Shown here in pieces: positions 2,138-54,531 of a stretch of DNA of 64,000 nt. A program made the position numbers and the translations under genes. The stretch comes from a virus (lineage: Duplodnaviria > Caudoviricetes): IMG/VR virus record IMGVR_UViG_3300013121_000046; one strand, given 5' to 3'. Under the pieces are notes generated by a model. That model searched no databases and was not told where the DNA came from. It worked only from the letters and a program-made list of their open reading frames with translations. Each line of letters opens with the position of its first letter. Position 1 is the first letter of the stretch.

Positions 2138-3829
2138 CTAACCTCCGGAATTTCTCCAAATTATATCAGAAGGCTCTCGTCGATTCTCCCCAACCTGATA
2201 CGGGTGGGCCTTATCCACCTTATACCGGCGATGTACGGAAGTTCCCTGCGAAGGAAATATCCAGTTTTGATTTCCACCTAAATCGGTACAGTTATCAAAG
2301 GCGAGAATTGAATTTCCCCCACTAGCATCACTGTCTTGAACGTTGACCCAGGCGACTGCTGACGTTCCCTCAACAATTAGCTCAAGGCCAGCACCAACCC
2401 ATTGAATAGTCTCACCAGAATTTCCCTGCGCCATAAATTCAGATGCTATAGTTAATGGGTTTCGATCAAGTCCAGTAGCCAAAAAGTCAAACTCTGAACT
2501 CTGTGTAACAGTTACTCCGGGTGCAACTGTCAAGTAGCCTATATTTCCACCCAGCAAGGTAACATCTGTTTGCAAAGAAACATTGGAAACAATATCTTCC
2601 GTAGCACTATAAAACTGGTTCGCAGCAATTCCTGGGTCATCTACATCCACAATTGTAACCATAGTACTTGGATTAGTCACAATAGAGTACGTCGTAGGAC
2701 TAAACCCATACCCCAGAACAAAATTAGAACTAGTTATGGCAGCCCCAGAGATATCTAATGTTACTGAGGGAGTATTCTCTGATGAAATTGCTAGGAAGGC
2801 TCTTGTGACTAAGCTTATCCCAGAAAAATCTAGCTCTCCCTTCCAATGATTTATCTGAAAATAATCAATCGTATACTCCCCATCCGCCCAACTCAGCACA
2901 TGTGGATCACTGCTGAATGCGTCGAAAACACTAACTACACCAGGATATACCCCGGGAGGGATAACAGTATCAATTACATACAAACCACCTGAGATAAGTA
3001 AATCCCCAAGATTAAATATCGAGGATTCTCCTCGGGTCATCGTACAACCCTGAGTCAAATACAACCCTGCACCAGAAAGAATATCCGGGTCTCTATCTTC
3101 CGGATCCGCTAGAGTCCCATCTAGTACAAAACTTGTCATTACCGAAAAAATTAAGTCCTGCCCAGAGTCTGCCCAATCCAAGCTAGGAGGGAGAAGGTAC
3201 AGAGTTGCCCCTTCAGCTATATACAGAGTCTGGGCACTGGCTAACCCAGCCTTACATGTGTACGAACCGAAGACATTCAAAGCATAAGGACCCGAACCAT
3301 CATTATCGGCATAGAGATACTTATCTATACCGTAGAGATTATAGTTTGCTGTAGAGGTTAGCTCACAATCATTAGTATCAATCGTAACATCGCCATAAAA
3401 ATTAAGCGTAGCATTCCCAGTACGAAGAGACACTGACCCGGAACTTCCACTAACCACCGGATCATATAAGAGTAGATTTCCTTGCACCGTAAGAACTGAA
3501 TCACCTAATTCAATTCTTACATCTTGCTGATCCTCTGCTGAGTCCACCCAATGGATATCTTCCGCCACATCAACAGAATACCCTAACGTAGTCAATACTA
3601 CATCTGTACCATGAACAAAAAGTATCTCATCTACAGAAATATCTGCTGTTAAAGAACATGTACCATTATCAGCCATTCGATACTCAAAGATTGCAACATC
3701 CCCTTCCTGAGGATACCTAGAGGCTGGCCCAGAACCCCCTGAAGATTCAGCCCAATTGGTAGCGTCCTGCCAAACACCACCGTTTACCGCCCAATAAAAA
3801 TTGGCCATTAGTTCCACACCCCCCTGCAC
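2138..3829 (-). CDS. Acidic beta-helix-like surface/virion protein
   Basis: N-term YWAVNGGVWQDATNWAESSGG...P..GDVAIF and C-term VNVQDSDASGG...DLGGNQNWIF; beta-rich. Confidence 0.6.
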   Translation of the reverse strand: MQGGVELMANFYWAVNGGVWQDATNWAESSGGSGPASRYPQEGDVAIFEYRMADNGTCSLTADISVDEILFVHGTDVVLTTLGYSVDVAEDIHWVDSAEDQQDVRIELGDSVLTVQGNLLLYDPVVSGSSGSVSLRTGNATLNFYGDVTIDTNDCELTSTANYNLYGIDKYLYADNDGSGPYALNVFGSYTCKAGLASAQTLYIAEGATLYLLPPSLDWADSGQDLIFSVMTSFVLDGTLADPEDRDPDILSGAGLYLTQGCTMTRGESSIFNLGDLLISGGLYVIDTVIPPGVYPGVVSVFDAFSSDPHVLSWADGEYTIDYFQINHWKGELDFSGISLVTRAFLAISSENTPSVTLDISGAAITSSNFVLGYGFSPTTYSIVTNPSTMVTIVDVDDPGIAANQFYSATEDIVSNVSLQTDVTLLGGNIGYLTVAPGVTVTQSSEFDFLATGLDRNPLTIASEFMAQGNSGETIQWVGAGLELIVEGTSAVAWVNVQDSDASGGNSILAFDNCTDLGGNQNWIFPSQGTSVHRRYKVDKAHPYQVGENRREPSDIIWRNSGG

Positions 3830-3846
3830 ACAAAATTAGTAAAATC

Positions 3847-5928
3847 CTACACAGGGCTAAACGCTAAGGTACTAGGAATATTGGCCACCGGTACAATAAT
3901 GTCGCTAAATCCTGGTATAGACAGCACAGCCGTGATTCGATTTACCCTATTAAAAGGTATCCCTGTACCTGATAGCTTATCCAGAGCATAGCTAATAACT
4001 GGCACAGTTGTTTTCCCAGCAGAGTCTACGGTGAAAGGGTAAGTTTCCAGGTCCTGGAAAGCCCCTGGCCCAGCCGAAAACCGGATCGTTCCAGATTTGC
4101 CTGCTACATTAGTAGAGCAGGTTAGAGTTTTACTGGTACCTATTTTAATACTCCTTGGAGAATCCCTCAGATTTTCAGCCGTTATGGTACCCAGATCAAA
4201 GGTAACTCCGGAGGTAGAAATCGTATCCAGAATAGTAATGACCTCCTTCACTCCCCAGTAACCGGTATACACCGAAACCTTACGGTAGCTATCGTCAGAA
4301 AACATAATCTTCGATGCTACCACAGTCACAATTTCCCGCCACCGATCTCGAACAATCTGAGAGTCCGGGAAGTTATTATTTATCCAAGTTACCGCTGCCC
4401 CGGACCACTGGGCAAACGCTGGCTGTGCCCCCAACCAATCACACTGATTCCCGACTAACGGGGTAAGTTGATAACAGCAGCTATCCCCCCCAGAGATACT
4501 AATAATCACGTTATTAGAGATAAACTTATTGCTATTAATCAGGTCTGTAGCCCCAATGTTGTTACCGGGCTTACCCTGATCCTCAAGAGTGATGGCATTA
4601 GCCCGCTGATCGTGTGTAGTATCTCCCGAAAGAATACTATATGAAGTATTCTCAGTAATAGTGTTCTGAAATTCGTAGTTCCCAAAGTATAACCCCGAAG
4701 CAGAACACCTATCACCACCCCCTAGGGCGAGGATAGTATTCCCTTTCACCAAGTTGTTTTTACACTCATACCGCATTCGGATCCCGGCAGCGTTCAACCC
4801 CCAACCATACTCCTCATTAGGAGAATCCCAAGCGAGGATCACATTCGATAATACCTTATTACCCTCCCCGGCATTCAACATAATCCCTCTACCATTCAGT
4901 GGGACTATCAAATTGTTCTGGAAGGTACTGCCATTTGACCTATACTCACCGATTCCATAACCATTTGTCGCATACGAATTATGCGAGATAAAGTTATACT
5001 CCACGCGACAGTTCTCTACCACATTTACTGCTAGATTCCCACCAATCAAAATATTATGATGGACATATGAGCCTCCACCAACATTTAATGATCCTGGTTG
5101 TGTGTGTCGATCTGCGGTTGCTGTACACAAATTATTGACAAACGAATTACTTACCGTAGAAGAACCCCAACGGAAAAATACACCACTCGAATCCGTACCA
5201 GAAACCTCCAACCTACAATTGTCTATAACAGCCTCATTACCACGGTAACCATAGATCGCATGGCATTTGTAGGGTTGGGCTCCCTTCGGGCCAGCATACA
5301 CAATCGCACCATTGATAATCTTAGCCCGAAAAGCCTCTGAAGAATCGGATATAGCATCTCGGTCTGAATCTGCCCAGTTCAAGTATAGGTGGATTCCATG
5401 TGCCTCACTAGTACTATTCACACCGTAGAAAATGGCATAACCATTCAGATCAATAGTCACATCCGGTCCCGCAATATAAATACCATCTCTGTCAAAACTC
5501 AAATTCTCTTGTAAAACATACTTTCCAGACCGGACAACAATGGGCTCTGATTTTCTCGCCCCGGGCCCTGGTAAGGGTGGTGGGGGTGAAATCGGGCTGG
5601 GGGGAGGCGAGACCGGTACGGGGGGCGGAGGAGGTGGAGATATCGGGGGAGGTGGAGATATCGGAGGAGGTGGAGATATCGGGGGAGGTGGAGATATCGG
5701 GGGAGGTGGAATCTCTAGCACAGCCACACGCTCTGCTAAACTTTTCAACTCTAACTCTAACTTAGCTACCTGCGAACTGAGGACAGTAAACAAATCCTTA
5801 GTCGCTCGATCATTCACATCAACCTGACTCAAGAGACCCGATACAGATCCTTGAAGAGCCTGTAAAGATTCCCCTAAGCTCTTAGTCTGCTTCTCAAGAC
5901 TAGTTAATCGTTGAGCTACCGTAGCCAT
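3847..5928 (-). CDS. Tailspike/depolymerase-like right-handed beta-helix protein with N-terminal coiled coil and Pro-rich linker
   Basis: SGKYVLQENL...GIYIAGPDVTIDLNGY cap, repeated N-x-I rungs, (PPPPIS)n. Confidence 0.75.
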   Translation of the reverse strand: MATVAQRLTSLEKQTKSLGESLQALQGSVSGLLSQVDVNDRATKDLFTVLSSQVAKLELELKSLAERVAVLEIPPPPISPPPPISPPPPISPPPPISPPPPPPVPVSPPPSPISPPPPLPGPGARKSEPIVVRSGKYVLQENLSFDRDGIYIAGPDVTIDLNGYAIFYGVNSTSEAHGIHLYLNWADSDRDAISDSSEAFRAKIINGAIVYAGPKGAQPYKCHAIYGYRGNEAVIDNCRLEVSGTDSSGVFFRWGSSTVSNSFVNNLCTATADRHTQPGSLNVGGGSYVHHNILIGGNLAVNVVENCRVEYNFISHNSYATNGYGIGEYRSNGSTFQNNLIVPLNGRGIMLNAGEGNKVLSNVILAWDSPNEEYGWGLNAAGIRMRYECKNNLVKGNTILALGGGDRCSASGLYFGNYEFQNTITENTSYSILSGDTTHDQRANAITLEDQGKPGNNIGATDLINSNKFISNNVIISISGGDSCCYQLTPLVGNQCDWLGAQPAFAQWSGAAVTWINNNFPDSQIVRDRWREIVTVVASKIMFSDDSYRKVSVYTGYWGVKEVITILDTISTSGVTFDLGTITAENLRDSPRSIKIGTSKTLTCSTNVAGKSGTIRFSAGPGAFQDLETYPFTVDSAGKTTVPVISYALDKLSGTGIPFNRVNRITAVLSIPGFSDIIVPVANIPSTLAFSPV
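5630..5710. repeat. 18-bp coding tandem repeat (PPPPIS x4)
   Basis: GGAGGTGGAGATATCGG(G/A) units. Confidence 0.9.
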
Positions 5929-47271: not shown

Positions 47272-48288
47272 TTAGTAAGCATAAACATACGTACTGCCAA
47301 TCCGGGTCAATCTGCCCGACCGCAATTCCTCCGTGTTCACAACATGACTCAGCCCCGACTCTTGCCGCTGTTTGGGGGTCATTCCTTGATATGCTGGAAG
47401 GTTCTCGCTGAACACAATCCGAGTATTGTATCGCCCCTGATGCACCACTACTACTTCTCGGCTATCCGTATCCCCCTCCTGAAACTCTTTAGGGACCTGA
47501 ACAAAAAAAGTCCGCTGCTGTTTTTTCACGGGCTTAACCCGAGCCGGCCGCTTAAACTGGTCAGTCAAGCCTCGATAGATATCCTGGAGGCCCGGGTTTG
47601 CAGCCATAAACCGGGTAAAGGAAATTTTCAAGTGATTCAGCAAAACTCGGACTGAACCCCTCTCCCAGGGGACTCGACTCATCGGAGGGACTTCAGCAGC
47701 AACCAATTCTTCCGCCAACTCAGCTACCGAAACCCCAGAGAGCAAAAGGTCAAGGGCACTAGCCATAGCCCGGCCGTGAGCCTGAGACAGGAGGTATCGA
47801 CGAAATTTTGGGGTAAAATCGGTATCAAACAACTTTTCGGATAGCGAAACATCCGGTACATCCAAAGTATTGCTTTTTGCATACGACTCTGCCCCAGAAC
47901 CATCCCCTGCATCCTGCTGTTGCAGCAGATACAGTTTCCGATCCTTCTTCGCCTGCATAGCTCGCAGACTTATCGCTCGCTGAATTACCCGATGGAAGAA
48001 GAACAGATCGAACGGTACCCCCCTCTGGGGGTCATACTGATCGAAAATGGACGTTTCGCCCAGAAACAAACGGACACACAAATCCTGAAGCAAATCTCCG
48101 GGAGGCAATGTAGTCTTCGAGCTTTTCAAATGATACCTGAGCCCCTTCCCCCAGTCAATATCCGGAGAAGAACAGAACGATAACAGGGACCTACCCCCCA
48201 AATAGGGCCGAGGCGCTTTCACCTGTGCAGATATCCACTCCCCAATGTCCTGAAATTGTTTTGCATCAATGGGCTGAAACTGCAACAT
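47272..48288 (-). CDS. Sigma70-like factor
   Basis: Region 2-like DLLQDLCVRLF...QYDPQRGVPFDLFF; HTH-like LLLSGVSVAELAEEL. Confidence 0.65.
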   Translation of the reverse strand: MLQFQPIDAKQFQDIGEWISAQVKAPRPYLGGRSLLSFCSSPDIDWGKGLRYHLKSSKTTLPPGDLLQDLCVRLFLGETSIFDQYDPQRGVPFDLFFFHRVIQRAISLRAMQAKKDRKLYLLQQQDAGDGSGAESYAKSNTLDVPDVSLSEKLFDTDFTPKFRRYLLSQAHGRAMASALDLLLSGVSVAELAEELVAAEVPPMSRVPWERGSVRVLLNHLKISFTRFMAANPGLQDIYRGLTDQFKRPARVKPVKKQQRTFFVQVPKEFQEGDTDSREVVVVHQGRYNTRIVFSENLPAYQGMTPKQRQESGLSHVVNTEELRSGRLTRIGSTYVYAY

Positions 48289-49068: not shown

Positions 49069-50241
49069 CTATAAAGTTATGGTACACTGTGGGATTCGCC
49101 AGTTTGGCTCTCGCTTAGAGGACACGCATTTCCACGGAGGGGGTGGAACAACTTCTTCTGGAAAGGTGGTCTGATACCAAGTATTCCAAGTCTTGGTAAG
49201 GAACGTAATCTGCTCACTCACTACCCAAGTTGGGAGACCCAACTCCGCAGAAATTTCAAATACTTTTTGAGGACATTCCATTAAATAATAGTACAAATCT
49301 AACAAAGACTTGTATGAAGATTTACATTTAGTCACCCGATTTGGGCCAAGGTTCTTTGTCAGAGTGCTTGGCCACAATACTCGGTGATCCTGAAGATAGA
49401 TTGAGTACTGCAAAAAACTTTCACCTGTCGTTCTTGCATTTTCTATCTTACCATTCCGCACAAATCTAACCATATCTGAGGATACCCACTCAACTGAATT
49501 ATTCAACACCAAAGTTTCTGTTCCATCCAATAATTGAATCGGCAACCAGTACTTCTTAGGTAGTGTTTTTAGCGGAACAATTTTTTCCTCCGTTAGAGAA
49601 TATCTAGAGATTCCGGGGGGTAAAAGGGTAATTTGATAGGGCGGAATAGAGAATTTTTTACCTGCTCCCTTAGCTAGTATCTGCCTAAGATGCTCCGGAA
49701 ATCGCTGAAGAATCTCATCTAGTTGTTGTAAAACCCAAGGTGGCACTTGTCCCGAATCTACCAAGTGTCTCTGTATCCCTCTAGAATTATGGAGAGAAAC
49801 CATATCCGCCGAGTATCGGGAAGTTCCGGATCTATGACTAGTTAGCCATCGCCAAGTAGCAGTGTAGACATAGGTATTCCATCCAGCCTTAAGGGGATTA
49901 AACTTATCCATACACCGGGACTTAAGCCACTTTAGTAACAATGTCTGTACATAATCTTCAATATCTTGCGGTGAGCACCCCATCTTAGTTAGAAGAGCCG
50001 ATACATACTTACGAGTATTTTCCTCTGCCCAAATGGCATCTCCCTTTGTATACTGCTCCCAATTTATATCTACTCTATGTAAACAAGCCCGGATCGCTGA
50101 ATCTGACGAAATATCATCTATACCAAACTTCTTTACCACAGTAAAGAATCTTTCGGATGTTTGTTCATACGTATCCGGGAAAGCCTGTTTCGCTATAGTT
50201 TTAACTCTAGAAATAAACTCTAAATCCATGTCATCCTCCAT
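49069..50241 (-). CDS. Second sigma70-like factor with large central insertion
   Basis: DIEDYVQ...DKFNPLKAGWNTYVY; C-terminal EISAELGLP..VV HTH. Confidence 0.6.
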   Translation of the reverse strand: MEDDMDLEFISRVKTIAKQAFPDTYEQTSERFFTVVKKFGIDDISSDSAIRACLHRVDINWEQYTKGDAIWAEENTRKYVSALLTKMGCSPQDIEDYVQTLLLKWLKSRCMDKFNPLKAGWNTYVYTATWRWLTSHRSGTSRYSADMVSLHNSRGIQRHLVDSGQVPPWVLQQLDEILQRFPEHLRQILAKGAGKKFSIPPYQITLLPPGISRYSLTEEKIVPLKTLPKKYWLPIQLLDGTETLVLNNSVEWVSSDMVRFVRNGKIENARTTGESFLQYSIYLQDHRVLWPSTLTKNLGPNRVTKCKSSYKSLLDLYYYLMECPQKVFEISAELGLPTWVVSEQITFLTKTWNTWYQTTFPEEVVPPPPWKCVSSKREPNWRIPQCTITL

Positions 50242-50255
50242 GCAATAGAATGAAA

Positions 50256-51512
50256 CTATCCAATTGCTACTCCGGGGATATCGAGAAGCTTAACCTGTTT
50301 TCTCAATCTCCCCGGTGAAACTTTTCGAGGCAACCTTTCCCTTTGTGGTTGATTCAGATACTCCAGGTAGAGGGGGATATTCAGTTGACCTGGAACTTCT
50401 GAGGATATGAGTACCGCTTTTTGCAACTTACCCCATTGTTCAGCAGTAAGTGGAGACCGAACAATCAAAAGAATTTCAGATACATCACTAGGTTGTTTCA
50501 CAACCTTAATTTTGTCCTCCGAAGTCACTGGTTCCGAACATACATCCGGAAAATATTCTTTTTTGAAGTCTTCTAGGCTAACTAACTCACCCCAGTTATC
50601 TCCAACTTCTATATCTGTCTCTATCGGTACATCCCAGTTTTTTTGGTTGTTGGGAAAGGTCATTAACTCAGAAAGCTTCTGACAATTATCTACGAACTTA
50701 TCATCCAAGTGAATCTCAAAAACCAATTCATCATGGACATTCAACAAAAGCTTAACTTGTACGTCGGGATTAGTTAAGAGCCATTCTTGTATCCGACACA
50801 TCGCAATTTTTAGGATATCAGCGCTGGTCCCCTGGATAGGAGAGTTGCTGGCTGAATTAGATAGATAACTCTCCCAACGATTCCGTTCTTTTTGTGTTTG
50901 TGCCTTCTGTATCTCTCGTATAATATGTCCGACATTCCGTACCCGACCATAGAAAGTTGTAACTCGGCCCTCGTTTTTAGCTCGCATGGTTTGAAGATCA
51001 AACCATCTGCGATAGGCCGGGAGATTTTCCCACCAGGTAGAATGGAGAGCGACTGCTTCTGGTAAAGTTAGGTCGCTTTGTCGGTATAGGGTACGAGCGG
51101 TACCCCCGTAAAGATTGCCGAAATTGGCTGCTTTGGCCGCATCTCGTTGTTCTTTGGTGGGCTTATCTGTCTTGTAGGCCACCTTTGCCATTTCGGAATG
51201 TAGGTCTCGCCCTTCTCTAAAAGCTGCTATCCAAACTTGTTCCTGTGATAACTGGGCGGCTACTCGAAGCTCGATGGCCTTATAGTCAATCGAAACTATC
51301 TTCCAGCCAGGTCGAGACCGAAAGGCTCGTCGAATATTAGTTCCAGGACCAATTTTTAGACTTGCTTCTTCCCAAGAACAAGCCTTTACCCACTTACATT
51401 TTTCACAGGAACTTCTAAAACAGTATGTAATGCCACCCTCTCGCCAAAATTGCCCTAATTCCATTACGGCCGGGACATAGCCGGGGGTACCTATTGGTGG
51501 TAATTCAGGCAC
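50256..51512 (-). CDS. DNA polymerase A, C-terminal subunit (palm/fingers)
   Basis: IRRAF, DYKAIELR, RDAAKAANFGNLYG, NSPIQGTSAD, VHDELVFE. Confidence 0.92.
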   Translation of the reverse strand: MPELPPIGTPGYVPAVMELGQFWREGGITYCFRSSCEKCKWVKACSWEEASLKIGPGTNIRRAFRSRPGWKIVSIDYKAIELRVAAQLSQEQVWIAAFREGRDLHSEMAKVAYKTDKPTKEQRDAAKAANFGNLYGGTARTLYRQSDLTLPEAVALHSTWWENLPAYRRWFDLQTMRAKNEGRVTTFYGRVRNVGHIIREIQKAQTQKERNRWESYLSNSASNSPIQGTSADILKIAMCRIQEWLLTNPDVQVKLLLNVHDELVFEIHLDDKFVDNCQKLSELMTFPNNQKNWDVPIETDIEVGDNWGELVSLEDFKKEYFPDVCSEPVTSEDKIKVVKQPSDVSEILLIVRSPLTAEQWGKLQKAVLISSEVPGQLNIPLYLEYLNQPQRERLPRKVSPGRLRKQVKLLDIPGVAIG

Positions 51513-52080
51513 GACGATAACTTCTCCAAATCTCTAAATCCATTTCTGCGGGAGATAAGTTACTGTTAGCGATATGGGATAAAAAAACACGCTCCAATTC
51601 TAGGTATCGTTTCCCCGTCGGGGTGTTCTTCGGAGCAGATATGCCCAGACTATTGATATACTTCAAAATGTGCGTATCCAACACCGCGAAATGCTGATTT
51701 TTTCTTGAGTGCAAAATAAATGCCCGAGAAGTCTTTGGCCCTATACCATAAATTGCCTCTAACTCAACAACTGAACAAGTCTGTAAGTCAATTCCTGAGT
51801 TAGATATATCTAAAAAGGTTTTTGCCTTTGCCCGAGAGCAACCCATACCTGCCCACTTTAATCGAACAGCAATCTCTTCATGAGAGAAGTCTTTTATCTG
51901 TAAAAAAGGGCTGTCCGCCTTAGGCAGATGCTCTAAAAATTCCTCCACTACTCTGGCGGCTAATTTTGCTGTTTTTCCAGCGGCACAAATCCAAAACAGT
52001 ATCGTCTTCTCTAATTCTGGAACACTTTGATTAAACTGAGTAATATTATCCGGATCAATCCTAGGCATACTTAACCTCAT
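51505..52080 (-). CDS. HhH-superfamily DNA glycosylase/AP lyase (OGG2-like)
   Basis: GIGPKT (Lys), VLDTHI (Asp), YLELE, DLEIW. Confidence 0.75.
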   Translation of the reverse strand: MRLSMPRIDPDNITQFNQSVPELEKTILFWICAAGKTAKLAARVVEEFLEHLPKADSPFLQIKDFSHEEIAVRLKWAGMGCSRAKAKTFLDISNSGIDLQTCSVVELEAIYGIGPKTSRAFILHSRKNQHFAVLDTHILKYINSLGISAPKNTPTGKRYLELERVFLSHIANSNLSPAEMDLEIWRSYRRA

Positions 52081-53324
52081 TCGTGATTCAATTCTGCTGG
52101 GGGTACCTTAATCTTTCTGCACTTTGCTAAACGGTATTTAGAGGCCGATGGAATAGATTGAACGTTCATCGCGGTATAGAATTCTCCTTTAGAACCACCA
52201 CCGGAGGAGAGTCGGCCTGTCGGGGCTCCCACAGAGGAGAACTTAAAGTGAGCATATGGATCGTCATCTGTAGTAGACTCTAATAATCTTCCGACGTAGG
52301 TAGATCTCTCTTTACACAGTTTTCTATATAACACAATCTTAGCCGCTATCGGACTAACCTCTGCCAATATCTCTAACTCAGCCTCACCTAAGTTAGGATT
52401 ACCTTTTTCTGTTTTAGAGAAGGCTATACCATTTTCAGTAAAATACTTAGCCAATTGCTTACTACTCAGCAAATTGAAAGGTCCCCCGGCTGCCTCATAC
52501 ACTTCCTTCTCCACCTGACAGATCAGACGCTCTAAGGTCTTATCCGCCTCACGAAGAATAGTCCTGTCCATCAATACACCAGATTCCTCCATGCTCAAAA
52601 GACTCTCGATAAGATTGTGCTCTACCTGACAAATCAAAGCCTGTTCTGCCTCAACTTTTTCTTCCGTAGCTCGATATACCTTGATAGTCATCACTGGGTC
52701 AGCCGCCGCATACAAAGTAGCCTGTTCAGGATCTGTATAAGAAAAGTCTATCTCACCCCGCATCTTTTTATCTCTAGCTGCTCCAGGTACCTCTCGAATA
52801 TCCAACATCTGTAACTCTGGATGAAACCACTGAATTGCTGATTTCAGGCCCACCTTTTCTACCTTCTCGTTGCTATTCCATAACCAAGCATAGACTAAAG
52901 CATCCCTCAGTATTGAGTATGAAGCCCGTCTATTCACTCCACACTGCCTTAAAAACCTACCCTCAAACTTATAGTTATACACCAACAAAATTCTAGGCGG
53001 AGCTATCACCTCCTGTATGATTTTCCAAACAATATCTGGATCAAGATTCTGCTCTGGCTTGACTTTGTGTCTTACTGGACAATAGACCCCTTCATCCGAA
53101 GAAAAAGCCAAGCAGTGCCCTACAACATCTTGCTCTTTTGGATCTAGATTTGTAGTCTCAATGTCCCATGAGACCAGATTTTGAGTTCTATTAGCCTCAA
53201 CATAGTCTCGTAACTCTTGTATGGAGCCTATCTGTCGAAGTCGAATTTGACTCATCCAAGGCTTCCAAAGAGGGCTATCCTGATATGCTATTCGAGTTTC
53301 CAAGGAGGCTGTATCTGTGGGCAT
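52077..53324 (-). CDS. DNA polymerase A, N-terminal subunit (3'-5' exonuclease + thumb)
   Basis: WDIETT, YNYKFE, YAAAD, FNLLSSKQL, KTEKG, TGRLSS, NVQSIP. Confidence 0.9.
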   Translation of the reverse strand: MPTDTASLETRIAYQDSPLWKPWMSQIRLRQIGSIQELRDYVEANRTQNLVSWDIETTNLDPKEQDVVGHCLAFSSDEGVYCPVRHKVKPEQNLDPDIVWKIIQEVIAPPRILLVYNYKFEGRFLRQCGVNRRASYSILRDALVYAWLWNSNEKVEKVGLKSAIQWFHPELQMLDIREVPGAARDKKMRGEIDFSYTDPEQATLYAAADPVMTIKVYRATEEKVEAEQALICQVEHNLIESLLSMEESGVLMDRTILREADKTLERLICQVEKEVYEAAGGPFNLLSSKQLAKYFTENGIAFSKTEKGNPNLGEAELEILAEVSPIAAKIVLYRKLCKERSTYVGRLLESTTDDDPYAHFKFSSVGAPTGRLSSGGGSKGEFYTAMNVQSIPSASKYRLAKCRKIKVPPAELNHE

Positions 53325-53334
53325 AGCAGACTAC

Positions 53335-53775
53335 TTAATTGAAAGAGAAGGGCATGTATATACGATTATAGTTCAAATTACCCCGAGAGAAATCCATAAT
53401 AATACCCATAATCTCCTTAGGAGTTGAACCCTGGAATAATTCCGGGTTCGCAACACTTGGGAGAAGACACCCCAGACTGAACCGATAAATGTCCAGTACC
53501 GATTCTAGGGTGACCCGAGTACACAAAACAGAACGAATATTCTGGGTGCCTAAAGAAACCCAGATTTTATGTCTCTCGTTGATATCCTGTTCCCAGGAAC
53601 GCTTAAGGGAATCATAAACCCCCCCATCAACTACCCCATGAGGTTTACAGTGTGCCCAGCAACCCCACCAATGTATACTAGCAGTTGACTGTAATCTATG
53701 TCCAGCTTTTTCGTATTTAAGATACTGGAAAAGCCACGACACTACCATCTTTTTTACTTCGTAAGTAGCGGACAT
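53335..53775 (-). CDS. Hypothetical protein
   Basis: ORF between primase Zn finger and pol; CxxC. Confidence 0.5.
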   Translation of the reverse strand: MSATYEVKKMVVSWLFQYLKYEKAGHRLQSTASIHWWGCWAHCKPHGVVDGGVYDSLKRSWEQDINERHKIWVSLGTQNIRSVLCTRVTLESVLDIYRFSLGCLLPSVANPELFQGSTPKEIMGIIMDFSRGNLNYNRIYMPFSFN

Positions 53776-54325
53776 TCTGTAAGTCCCTTTTCAAAGCATC
53801 CACAAAAGCTGTGTAACCTCTTTTCTGATCCTCCTTAGGGATTGAAAGCAATAGCTCCAAAAGGCCATCTACTTTTTTAGCCCAACTGGAATAGGTATCC
53901 AATGAGACTTTTCCGCGAAACTCTTTTAGTTCTTTTTCTGCCATAAGAAAAAAAGTATGGCTTATCGTAGCTATTTCAGGAACAGTTGCTCCAGAAATAG
54001 CTAGTTGAACTGCTTCTGCTGATGGTGGCCATCTCTGAAGAAGTCTTGCAGCCACCTCTCCCGCAGAACCACCCCAATGCGCCTCAGCAATTTCTACTGG
54101 ACGATACTGTTTTCCGCAGAAAAAACAAAAGACAAAATTGTCTGCATACACTCTAGCAGAAGGGTGTGACTCTGTTCCAGGACCACGATCTCCGTGTACC
54201 GGGCATTTAATTTGACAAGGGAATCTTCCCTGATGGAATATGCCCAGAAGGGAAAGAAGTTCTAGAATAGGTACAGTAGCATTGGCGACTACTACGTCCT
54301 GCCATTCCCGTTTTGATTGTAGCAT
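53717..54325 (-). CDS. Stand-alone CHC2 primase zinc-binding domain protein
   Basis: CPVH...ESHPS..VY...FCFFCG; no TOPRIM. Confidence 0.8.
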   Translation of the reverse strand: MLQSKREWQDVVVANATVPILELLSLLGIFHQGRFPCQIKCPVHGDRGPGTESHPSARVYADNFVFCFFCGKQYRPVEIAEAHWGGSAGEVAARLLQRWPPSAEAVQLAISGATVPEIATISHTFFLMAEKELKEFRGKVSLDTYSSWAKKVDGLLELLLSIPKEDQKRGYTAFVDALKRDLQNVRYLRSKKDGSVVAFPVS

Positions 54326-54531
54326 GTCTTATTTCTACTCTCAATGGGGTCTTCCGGGTGAATCTTTCTATAAACTTCCCCACGATGAATATCAATATCT
54401 CTGCGTGCAGCAAAACCCAACTTAACTCCATCCTGATCGTACCCTAGGATTTTCATTACCACCTTATCTGGACCAGACCCAATAACCACAGTATCAGTGG
54501 CTTCCCTCGCATCTCTGTGTAAGATCAACAC
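54292..54531 (-). CDS. csrA: Carbon storage regulator CsrA/RsmA homologue
   Basis: MLILHR...VVIG...VKLGFAARRDIDIHRGEVY. Confidence 0.85.
   Translation of the reverse strand: MLILHRDAREATDTVVIGSGPDKVVMKILGYDQDGVKLGFAARRDIDIHRGEVYRKIHPEDPIESRNKTCYNQNGNGRT

Follow-up and report, generated by a model that had tools for sequence, protein, structure and literature searches.

Our analysis of a 64,000-nucleotide (nt) stretch of DNA from the virus record IMGVR_UViG_3300013121_000046 of IMG/VR (Duplodnaviria; Caudoviricetes), hereafter the window, reveals a family A DNA polymerase (PolA) that is encoded in two genes, PolA-N and PolA-C, with the gene of a predicted DNA glycosylase lodged between them. 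We consider it probable that the two products form a two-subunit polymerase whose split is ancestral to its clade and had a homing-type origin, the glycosylase being later cargo. The window is part of a 236-kilobase (kb) contig; every gene lies on the minus strand and the DNA is phage-like. At 50256-53324 three close-packed minus-strand open reading frames (ORFs) encode PolA-N, the glycosylase and PolA-C, and these ORFs, their junctions and the segments discussed below are laid out as follows (lengths in amino acids, aa; HhH, helix-hairpin-helix).

52077..53324, minus strand: PolA-N, 415 aa; 3'-5' exonuclease and thumb up to NVQSIP; PF01612, PF00476, phrog_17.
51505..52080, minus strand: glycosylase ORF, 191 aa (187 aa from the ATG at 52068); Ogg2-type HhH-GPD protein; PF22175, phrog_11575.
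50256..51512, minus strand: PolA-C, 418 aa; leader, palm and fingers; PF00476, phrog_17.
52077..52080, minus strand: ATGA overlap of the PolA-N stop with the first glycosylase ATG, read from the sequence.
51505..51512, minus strand: GTGCCTGA, 8-nt overlap of the glycosylase stop with the GTG start of PolA-C, from the sequence and the N-terminal conservation of PolA-C.
52080..52148, minus strand: PolA-N tail after NVQSIP, 23 aa, SASKYRLAKCRKIKVPPAELNHE, from the alignment of N-halves, comparison with fused relatives and the modelled interface.
51336..51512, minus strand: PolA-C leader, 59 aa; G/P-rich start, helix VMELGQFWR, Cys4 knot and GPG-NIRRAF, conserved in 21 relatives.
51378..51422, minus strand: Cys4 site C31-x4-C36-x2-C39-x5-C45, from conservation; the pattern recurs in fused relatives.
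50259..50555, minus strand: C-terminal appendage of PolA-C after GDNWGE, about 100 aa, conserved in the clade (alignment columns ~540-710).

No segment of the PolA fold is missing across the two ORFs. PolA-N matches the Pfam families DNA_pol_A_exo1 (PF01612) and DNA_pol_A (PF00476, profile positions 3-148 of 381), PolA-C matches the latter at profile positions 138-381 (E 6.3e-59), and phrog_17 is covered at 656-990 by the one and at 995-1250 by the other. The exonuclease motifs ExoI (D54/E56), ExoII (F120-E121) and ExoIII (Y205/D209) stand in PolA-N, and motif A (D76, E81, R83), motif B of the fingers (R123, K127, F131) and motif C of the palm (H260-D261-E262) in PolA-C, all of them residues that are invariant in the alignments of the respective halves. 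With Exo I-III and motifs A, B and C intact across the two ORFs, the locus carries what distinguishes a family A polymerase (PF00476) with a proofreading exonuclease. PolA-N ends exactly 23 aa past NVQSIP, and in PolA-C the IRRAF motif starts at residue 60, behind a leader of about 59 aa with cysteines at positions 31, 36, 39 and 45 that relatives conserve; on both of these points an initial annotation, made from the sequence alone, had read the locus correctly. Chance is excluded as an explanation of these features by the homology E-values and by the Cys positions, which are kept in 21 sequences averaging 36% column identity. The window would therefore encode a replicative family A DNA polymerase in two subunits, PolA-N with the proofreading exonuclease and thumb, and PolA-C with the Cys4 module and the palm and fingers.

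PolA-N and PolA-C share a reading frame, and the glycosylase lies in another one. The initial annotation had the glycosylase gene overlapping both halves, and overlapping ORFs are indeed present at both ends. At the PolA-N side, a GAGG Shine-Dalgarno sequence (52075-52078) is placed to serve the second glycosylase ATG, at 52068, and homologues of the glycosylase begin MIDP, matching a start at this second ATG. The true start is therefore more likely to be that at 52068, in which case the PolA-N/glycosylase junction would be an 8-nt spacer and not an overlap, with coupling still tight. At the other end, the gene caller had chosen a later ATG for PolA-C, giving 402 aa, and the GTG start is supported as the correct one because G8 and P14, ahead of the next ATG, are conserved in relatives. 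The 8-nt overlap between glycosylase and PolA-C would allow translational coupling. Since the glycosylase stop overlaps the PolA-C start, the glycosylase and the two polymerase halves are probably translated together, and the former would act as a repair accessory to the replication module; a structural role for it within the polymerase is improbable.

The split is conserved well beyond the window. In a word-based search, some 20 proteins from metagenomes (409-567 aa) proved to be 34-47% identical to PolA-C, and each of them shares its starting point and its leader. An exhaustive profile search of 1.84 billion representatives gave about 22 metagenomic clusters (50% identity) whose match begins at PolA-C residue 1. 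Genomic context was recovered for seven loci of split-PolA relatives, in all of which the N-half gene directly precedes the C-half gene, with either nothing or unrelated cargo in between. Four of the seven junctions are free of cargo, the gaps amounting to 102 nt (L001), 2 nt (L002/L003), 92 nt (L005) and 68 nt (a 51-kb Joint Genome Institute (JGI) contig). The remaining three hold two small ORFs with no family match (L004), one 117-aa ORF (an 18-kb JGI contig) and, at 2762-3956 on the plus strand of L006, a 57-aa MazE-like ORF together with a 339-aa GIY-YIG/NUMOD3/AP2 homing endonuclease (phrog_314, 2e-26). The Pfam match of the 57-aa ORF to MazE/AbrB-like proteins (E 6e-4) lies below the cut-off. 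A glycosylase stands between the halves in none of the seven loci. In these relatives the N-half stops shortly past NxQxIP, and what follows the motif is a basic stretch of partial conservation, most often with an acidic tail.

On this evidence, the split is older than the glycosylase insertion. The initial annotation had described a polymerase split around an embedded glycosylase, and this description has to be given up, because seven relative loci share the split and lack the glycosylase between the halves. Instead, the junction of an already split gene is an insertion hot spot that takes up varied cargo. A pattern scan of IMG/VR gave no close relatives, and among GenBank phages, searched with both halves and two relatives, no match exceeded about 36% identity and none came from a cultured phage of the clade. 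As a separate observation on the C-halves, the appendage of about 100 aa at the end of PolA-C (consensus ...VKVPL...G..Y...KV.E..LR...IPGV) is shared throughout the split clade and matches nothing in Pfam.

Relatives in which the polymerase is a single chain reveal the nature of the break. When leader residues 1-100 were compared with longer proteins in a word-based search, no fused forms came up, which is weak evidence. The exhaustive profile search later found them, in its second tier, as unsplit PolAs of 712-1098 aa; their match to the profile begins within the leader, at residue ~410-630 of the protein. Both kinds of relative that the initial annotation had thought informative, fused and split at the same site, are thus at hand. 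In the fused relatives, 97-160 residues separate NxQxxP from the end of motif A, versus 38-41 in canonical PolAs, and the insert of 60-120 aa has the same layout as the tail and leader of the window. It opens with a basic strand (A-K/R-K-I/V-x-x-P), continues through a linker that varies and is often acidic, and then has an aromatic helix ahead of a Cys4 knot, mostly C-x4-C-x2-C-x3/5-C. The PolA-N tail is the basic first part of this lineage-specific insert, without the acidic extension of most relatives, the PolA-C leader is homologous to its second half, and the split forms are broken at its acidic linker. Further split sub-families with different Cys spacings also exist.

In a quick maximum-likelihood tree, the clade of the window is wholly split (17 rows; Shimodaira-Hasegawa-like approximate likelihood ratio test, SH-aLRT, 95). 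Over the whole tree, branches with good support require the split state to change at least twice, and seven changes are needed on the best tree; P0372, one of the split rows, could be a truncated ORF. To judge from the sequences at hand, these uncultured phages, seen on contigs of up to 236 kb, form a clade that inherited the split from its ancestor. Three things appear to be new: a PolA group whose Cys4 insert lies between NxQxIP and motif A, a clade with the subunit break inside that insert, and a repair glycosylase at the junction.

The two halves were modelled as a complex, with a zinc ion included, and set against three controls. As the initial annotation had anticipated, they pair in the prediction: the interface score ipSAE is 0.86 for PolA-N with PolA-C versus 0.09 for the best of the three controls, the mark applied being one that 58 of 80 solved complexes and 2 of 110 mismatched pairs reach. 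Model runs share at least 82% of their contacts, and the partner has a predicted local distance difference test (pLDDT) value of at least 77. The confident interface comprises the usual thumb/palm packing of PolA and, in addition, the tail of the N-half (residues 388-412) and all but a small part of the leader (4-67). These values support binding of the halves to each other, although the pass partly reflects likeness to solved structures, because the halves are pieces of the much-solved PolA fold. Judging from the model, the two polypeptides would most likely reassemble non-covalently, and the tail and the Cys4 leader would form part of the seam. The conserved module, together with a model that passes its controls, supports the earlier proposal that this PolA is made as two polypeptides with a Cys4 module at the break.

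Within the 21 C-half sequences, C31, C36 and C45 of this module never vary, and C39 is kept in at least 90%; the pattern recurs at the same site in fused relatives. The spacing C-x2-C-x5-C is found in [4Fe-4S] sites such as those of EndoIII/MutY, AddB/Cas4 and WhiB, and compact Cys4 zinc knuckles are equally possible for such spacing. The predicted metal could therefore be zinc or an iron-sulfur (Fe-S) centre. An hhalign comparison of the leader profile with E. coli EndoIII picks the cluster loop (176-206) and aligns the four Cys across a 2-residue gap, a match that is not significant (probability 1.1%, E-value 0.047); the spacing is C-x4-C-x2-C-x5-C in the leader versus C-x6-C-x2-C-x5-C in the EndoIII/MutY loop. 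Searched against Pfam with a cut-off of E <= 10, the leader and the 21 C-halves gave nothing but DNA_pol_A and no match to the Endonuclease III Fe-S domain, and CxxCxGxG, the DnaJ-like zinc motif of the HMO-2011 type, is absent from the leader sequences of the window and its relatives. Folded alone, the leader is poorly modelled (mean pLDDT 51), and its look-alikes in the protein atlas, with scores of 0.88 or less, are uninformative.

We regard it as doubtful that the conserved Cys4 knot after the aromatic helix binds a [4Fe-4S] cluster in the manner of the EndoIII/MutY loop. If it did, an Fe-S loop would lie at the subunit seam beside the exiting duplex, made in this phage next to a glycosylase for oxidative damage, and the Fe-S knot would span a wide range of phage family A polymerases, split and unsplit, that have yet to be described as a group. 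Among family A DNA polymerases, such an iron-sulfur enzyme would be the first known to us. The notion that the leader arose by duplication from the glycosylase C-terminus or from a broken EndoIII-like gene, suggested by the likeness of PAEMDLEIWRSY to PAVMELGQFWREG, was rejected because the PAEMDLEIWRSY motif is a feature of the Ogg2 family and because the leader is present in relatives without the glycosylase. Another location for a cysteine-rich insert in phage PolAs is seen in a 485-kb uncultured phage (LR745208.1; L015:3968-9244, plus strand), where a single 1758-aa PolA ORF has a CxxC...CxxC ribbon just past motif A and lacks a Cys4 module in the place, between NxQxIP and motif A, where PolA-C has one. 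The same ORF is interrupted by two intein-like inserts, both of which terminate in HN with Ser or Thr next in line.

With regard to the glycosylase, its ORF matches Pfam Ogg-HhH (PF22175, 5.5e-8) and phrog_11575 (1.1e-39, annotated as function unknown), and its matches in the Protein Data Bank are archaeal 8-oxoguanine glycosylase/lyases (9o00, 2.7e-8; 3fhf; 3knt). About 200 homologues, 40-55% identical, span 95% of its length, and all family-invariant residues are retained, including the catalytic Lys116 (GIGPK116T) and Asp135 (LD135TH). An HhH motif with the catalytic Lys, a downstream Asp, a full-length family match and the absence of an Fe-S loop place it in the Ogg2 type, as a complete predicted 8-oxoguanine DNA glycosylase/apurinic-apyrimidinic lyase. 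In this regard, it is like the Ogg2 enzymes (3KNT, 3FHF, 9O00; PF22175) in length, in the HhH-GPD fold, in the catalytic Lys and Asp, in the terminal AEMDLxIW and in lacking an Fe-S cluster; it differs from the archaeal and thermostable members in that it is phage-encoded, lodged between polymerase genes and of predicted substrate. Its homologues were examined at five loci: one adjoins Cdc6 and PolD on an archaeal contig (L008), one belongs to the replication module of a T4-like phage (L009), one lies in a 239-kb contig (L007) and two are on short phage-like contigs (L012, L013). None of the five lies inside a PolA. We read the glycosylase as a lineage-specific accessory repair gene that may have landed in, or been recruited to, a well-expressed slot.

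Whether the real product is after all a single-chain PolA, the break being part of an intron or intein, or an artefact of assembly or a frameshift, has to be weighed, given that PolA-N and PolA-C are in the same frame by their ORF coordinates, that phage polymerase genes often contain introns or inteins and that real inteins occur elsewhere in this PolA family. We judge this very improbable. The split, with its own stop and start, occurs in at least seven independent contigs from different samples, one of them with 2 nt between the halves, and such conservation in independent contigs argues against misassembly. Both junctions of the window lack non-coding DNA that could hold a group I or group II intron core, and Rfam gives no family at E <= 1 over 49500-54000. 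As for a split intein, the tail (23 aa) and leader (59 aa) total 82 aa, too short for one, the leader has no His-Asn pair and hence no HN-Cys/Ser/Thr junction, and Pfam gives no intein match. The absence of intron space and of split-intein motifs noted in the initial annotation is thus borne out by Rfam and Pfam, as well as by the gaps of only 2-102 nt in relatives. Degenerate split-intein clasps at the junction were likewise considered and rejected, in view of the lengths, the missing HN, the lack of a Pfam intein match and the fact that the tail and leader are an ordinary insert in unsplit relatives. The locus instead has the marks of genes in pieces, namely separately translated ORFs with their own stop and start, conserved and found beside unsplit homologues.

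A second alternative would make the glycosylase a genuine third subunit, with base-excision repair physically coupled to the split polymerase through recruitment by the Cys4 leader or the tail. It draws on a gene wedged in without non-coding DNA, its stop overlapping the PolA-C start, on a fully ameliorated composition and on the Ogg2 homologues of other large phages, which sit in replication modules. We nevertheless find it improbable, since the glycosylase is at the junction in none of the seven related split-PolA loci, none of the five Ogg2 homologue loci lies inside a PolA, and relatives that lack the glycosylase still keep the Cys4 leader and the tail. The suggestion that polymerase and glycosylase possibly form one complex therefore receives no support from these two comparisons.

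As to how the gene came to be split, the two-subunit reading holds that a free-standing homing endonuclease most likely invaded it first, in the manner known from other phage genes in pieces, and that the junction has since remained a landing site for varied cargo. The split could alternatively have arisen without a mobile element, for instance by stop and start mutations in a tolerant linker, with cargo arriving later by illegitimate recombination; four of the seven related loci have a gene-free junction, and the break lies in a variable acidic linker that is expected to tolerate interruption. This course of events seems to us the less likely one, though it carries more weight than the other alternatives. 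A free-standing GIY-YIG/NUMOD3 homing endonuclease sits exactly at the junction in one relative, the family is heavily colonised by homing elements, and published precedents mix endonuclease-occupied and empty junctions (PMC2988022), just as here L006 has the endonuclease, the window has the glycosylase and four relatives have nothing. In the same family, LAGLIDADG-bearing inteins, one or two each, are seen elsewhere in the C-halves P0241, P0244, P0247 and P0276; P0016 has an intein-like insert just before motif C with no Pfam hit of its own; and intein and LAGLIDADG Pfam hits are listed for DnaB (907 aa) on the 18-kb JGI contig. Inteins in the C-halves and in DnaB imply that selfish elements target the replication genes of this phage group.

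Several observations weigh against the account that we prefer. The deep branches of the tree are weak, so that neither a single origin of the split nor its direction, whether splitting or re-fusion, is established. With C-half identity at 47% or less, the window has no close database relative; composition and codon usage of the glycosylase match those of its neighbours and are not foreign, and its tight overlaps could mean more than passive insertion. The N-half of the window lacks the acidic tail that most relatives have. Finally, a homing endonuclease is considered the most likely origin on the strength of a single relative (L006) and of precedent.

Genes in pieces that reassemble without splicing have been described for nrdA-a/mobE/nrdA-b of Aeromonas phage Aeh1 and for gene 43A/43B, the family B polymerase of phages 25 and 44RR (PMC2988022). 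As in those systems, an essential single-chain enzyme is found in the window as two translated genes, and the junction holds a homing endonuclease in some relatives and a short gap in others. The window differs in that the polymerase is of family A, the break lies in a Cys4 insert, the occupant is a glycosylase and not a nuclease, and reassembly is modelled. The nearest published case is that of the OM43 phages MEP401 and MEP402 (OP830906), in which PolA is split inside the polymerase domain around a 77-aa ORF of unassigned function, with an intron left open as a possibility by the authors (PMC10580990). The initial annotation named no precedent for a PolA split inside the palm; the MEP401/402 break is such a precedent, only a few residues away, between the NLQN motif and motif A (PMC10580990). 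There, the first ORF ends ...NLQNFDGEIKTLFLSRYGE and the second starts at motif A, so that the break lies about 14 residues further downstream than that of the window. These phages are 43-kb podoviruses distantly related to the window phage, and their PolA has neither the insert nor the Cys4 module.

Family A polymerases encoded by more than one phage gene are also known from the clade B T7-like cyanophages, for example S-TIP37, with the exonuclease separate (PMC12695635), and the PolA exonuclease of Pseudomonas phage LUZ24 (NC_010325) is encoded separately as well; in both, the break is at the boundary between the exonuclease and polymerase domains, whereas that of the window is inside the polymerase domain. 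A cysteine-rich, presumably metal-binding module within a phage PolA likewise has a parallel, since PolAs of the HMO-2011 type, which are unsplit, carry part of a DnaJ central (Zn-binding) domain with two CXXCXGXG motifs, reported to lie between the exonuclease and polymerase domains (PMC9038755). The window has instead a single C-x4-C-x2-C-x5-C knot between NxQxIP and motif A.

Given that split phage polymerases and cysteine-rich PolA inserts are already documented, the surprise is moderate and no new principle is involved. Our findings would add a conserved clade of natural heterodimeric family A polymerases with the seam running through a predicted metal-binding insert, and with it a test case for the reassembly of split replicases and for the role of the insert, be it docking, DNA contact or redox sensing. 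They also suggest that a junction probably opened by a selfish endonuclease can become an expression slot for useful cargo, here predicted 8-oxoguanine repair. On a practical level, annotators and gene callers would mislabel the halves as truncated polymerases or suspected introns, and the evidence argues against both.

Some neighbouring genes deserve mention. In the part of the window past PolA-C (47272-48288 and 49069-50241, minus strand), the gene directly downstream of the C-half encodes a 390-aa protein with a weak match to sigma-70 region 2 (Pfam E 0.0038, below the cut-off), and the same position after the C-half is taken in L001, L002/L003 and L006 by genes for 424-484 aa without a Pfam match. 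Between dnaB and PolA-N lie a 202-aa protein and a 79-aa ORF (53717-54325 and 54292-54531, minus strand), the former without a Pfam match and with a CHC2-like cysteine/histidine pattern. Finally, a plant-type ferredoxin (Fer2) is encoded a few kb downstream of the polymerase in two relatives (L001:11544-11861 and L006:9297-9623), which could point to Fe-S metabolism or to a host that is phototrophic.

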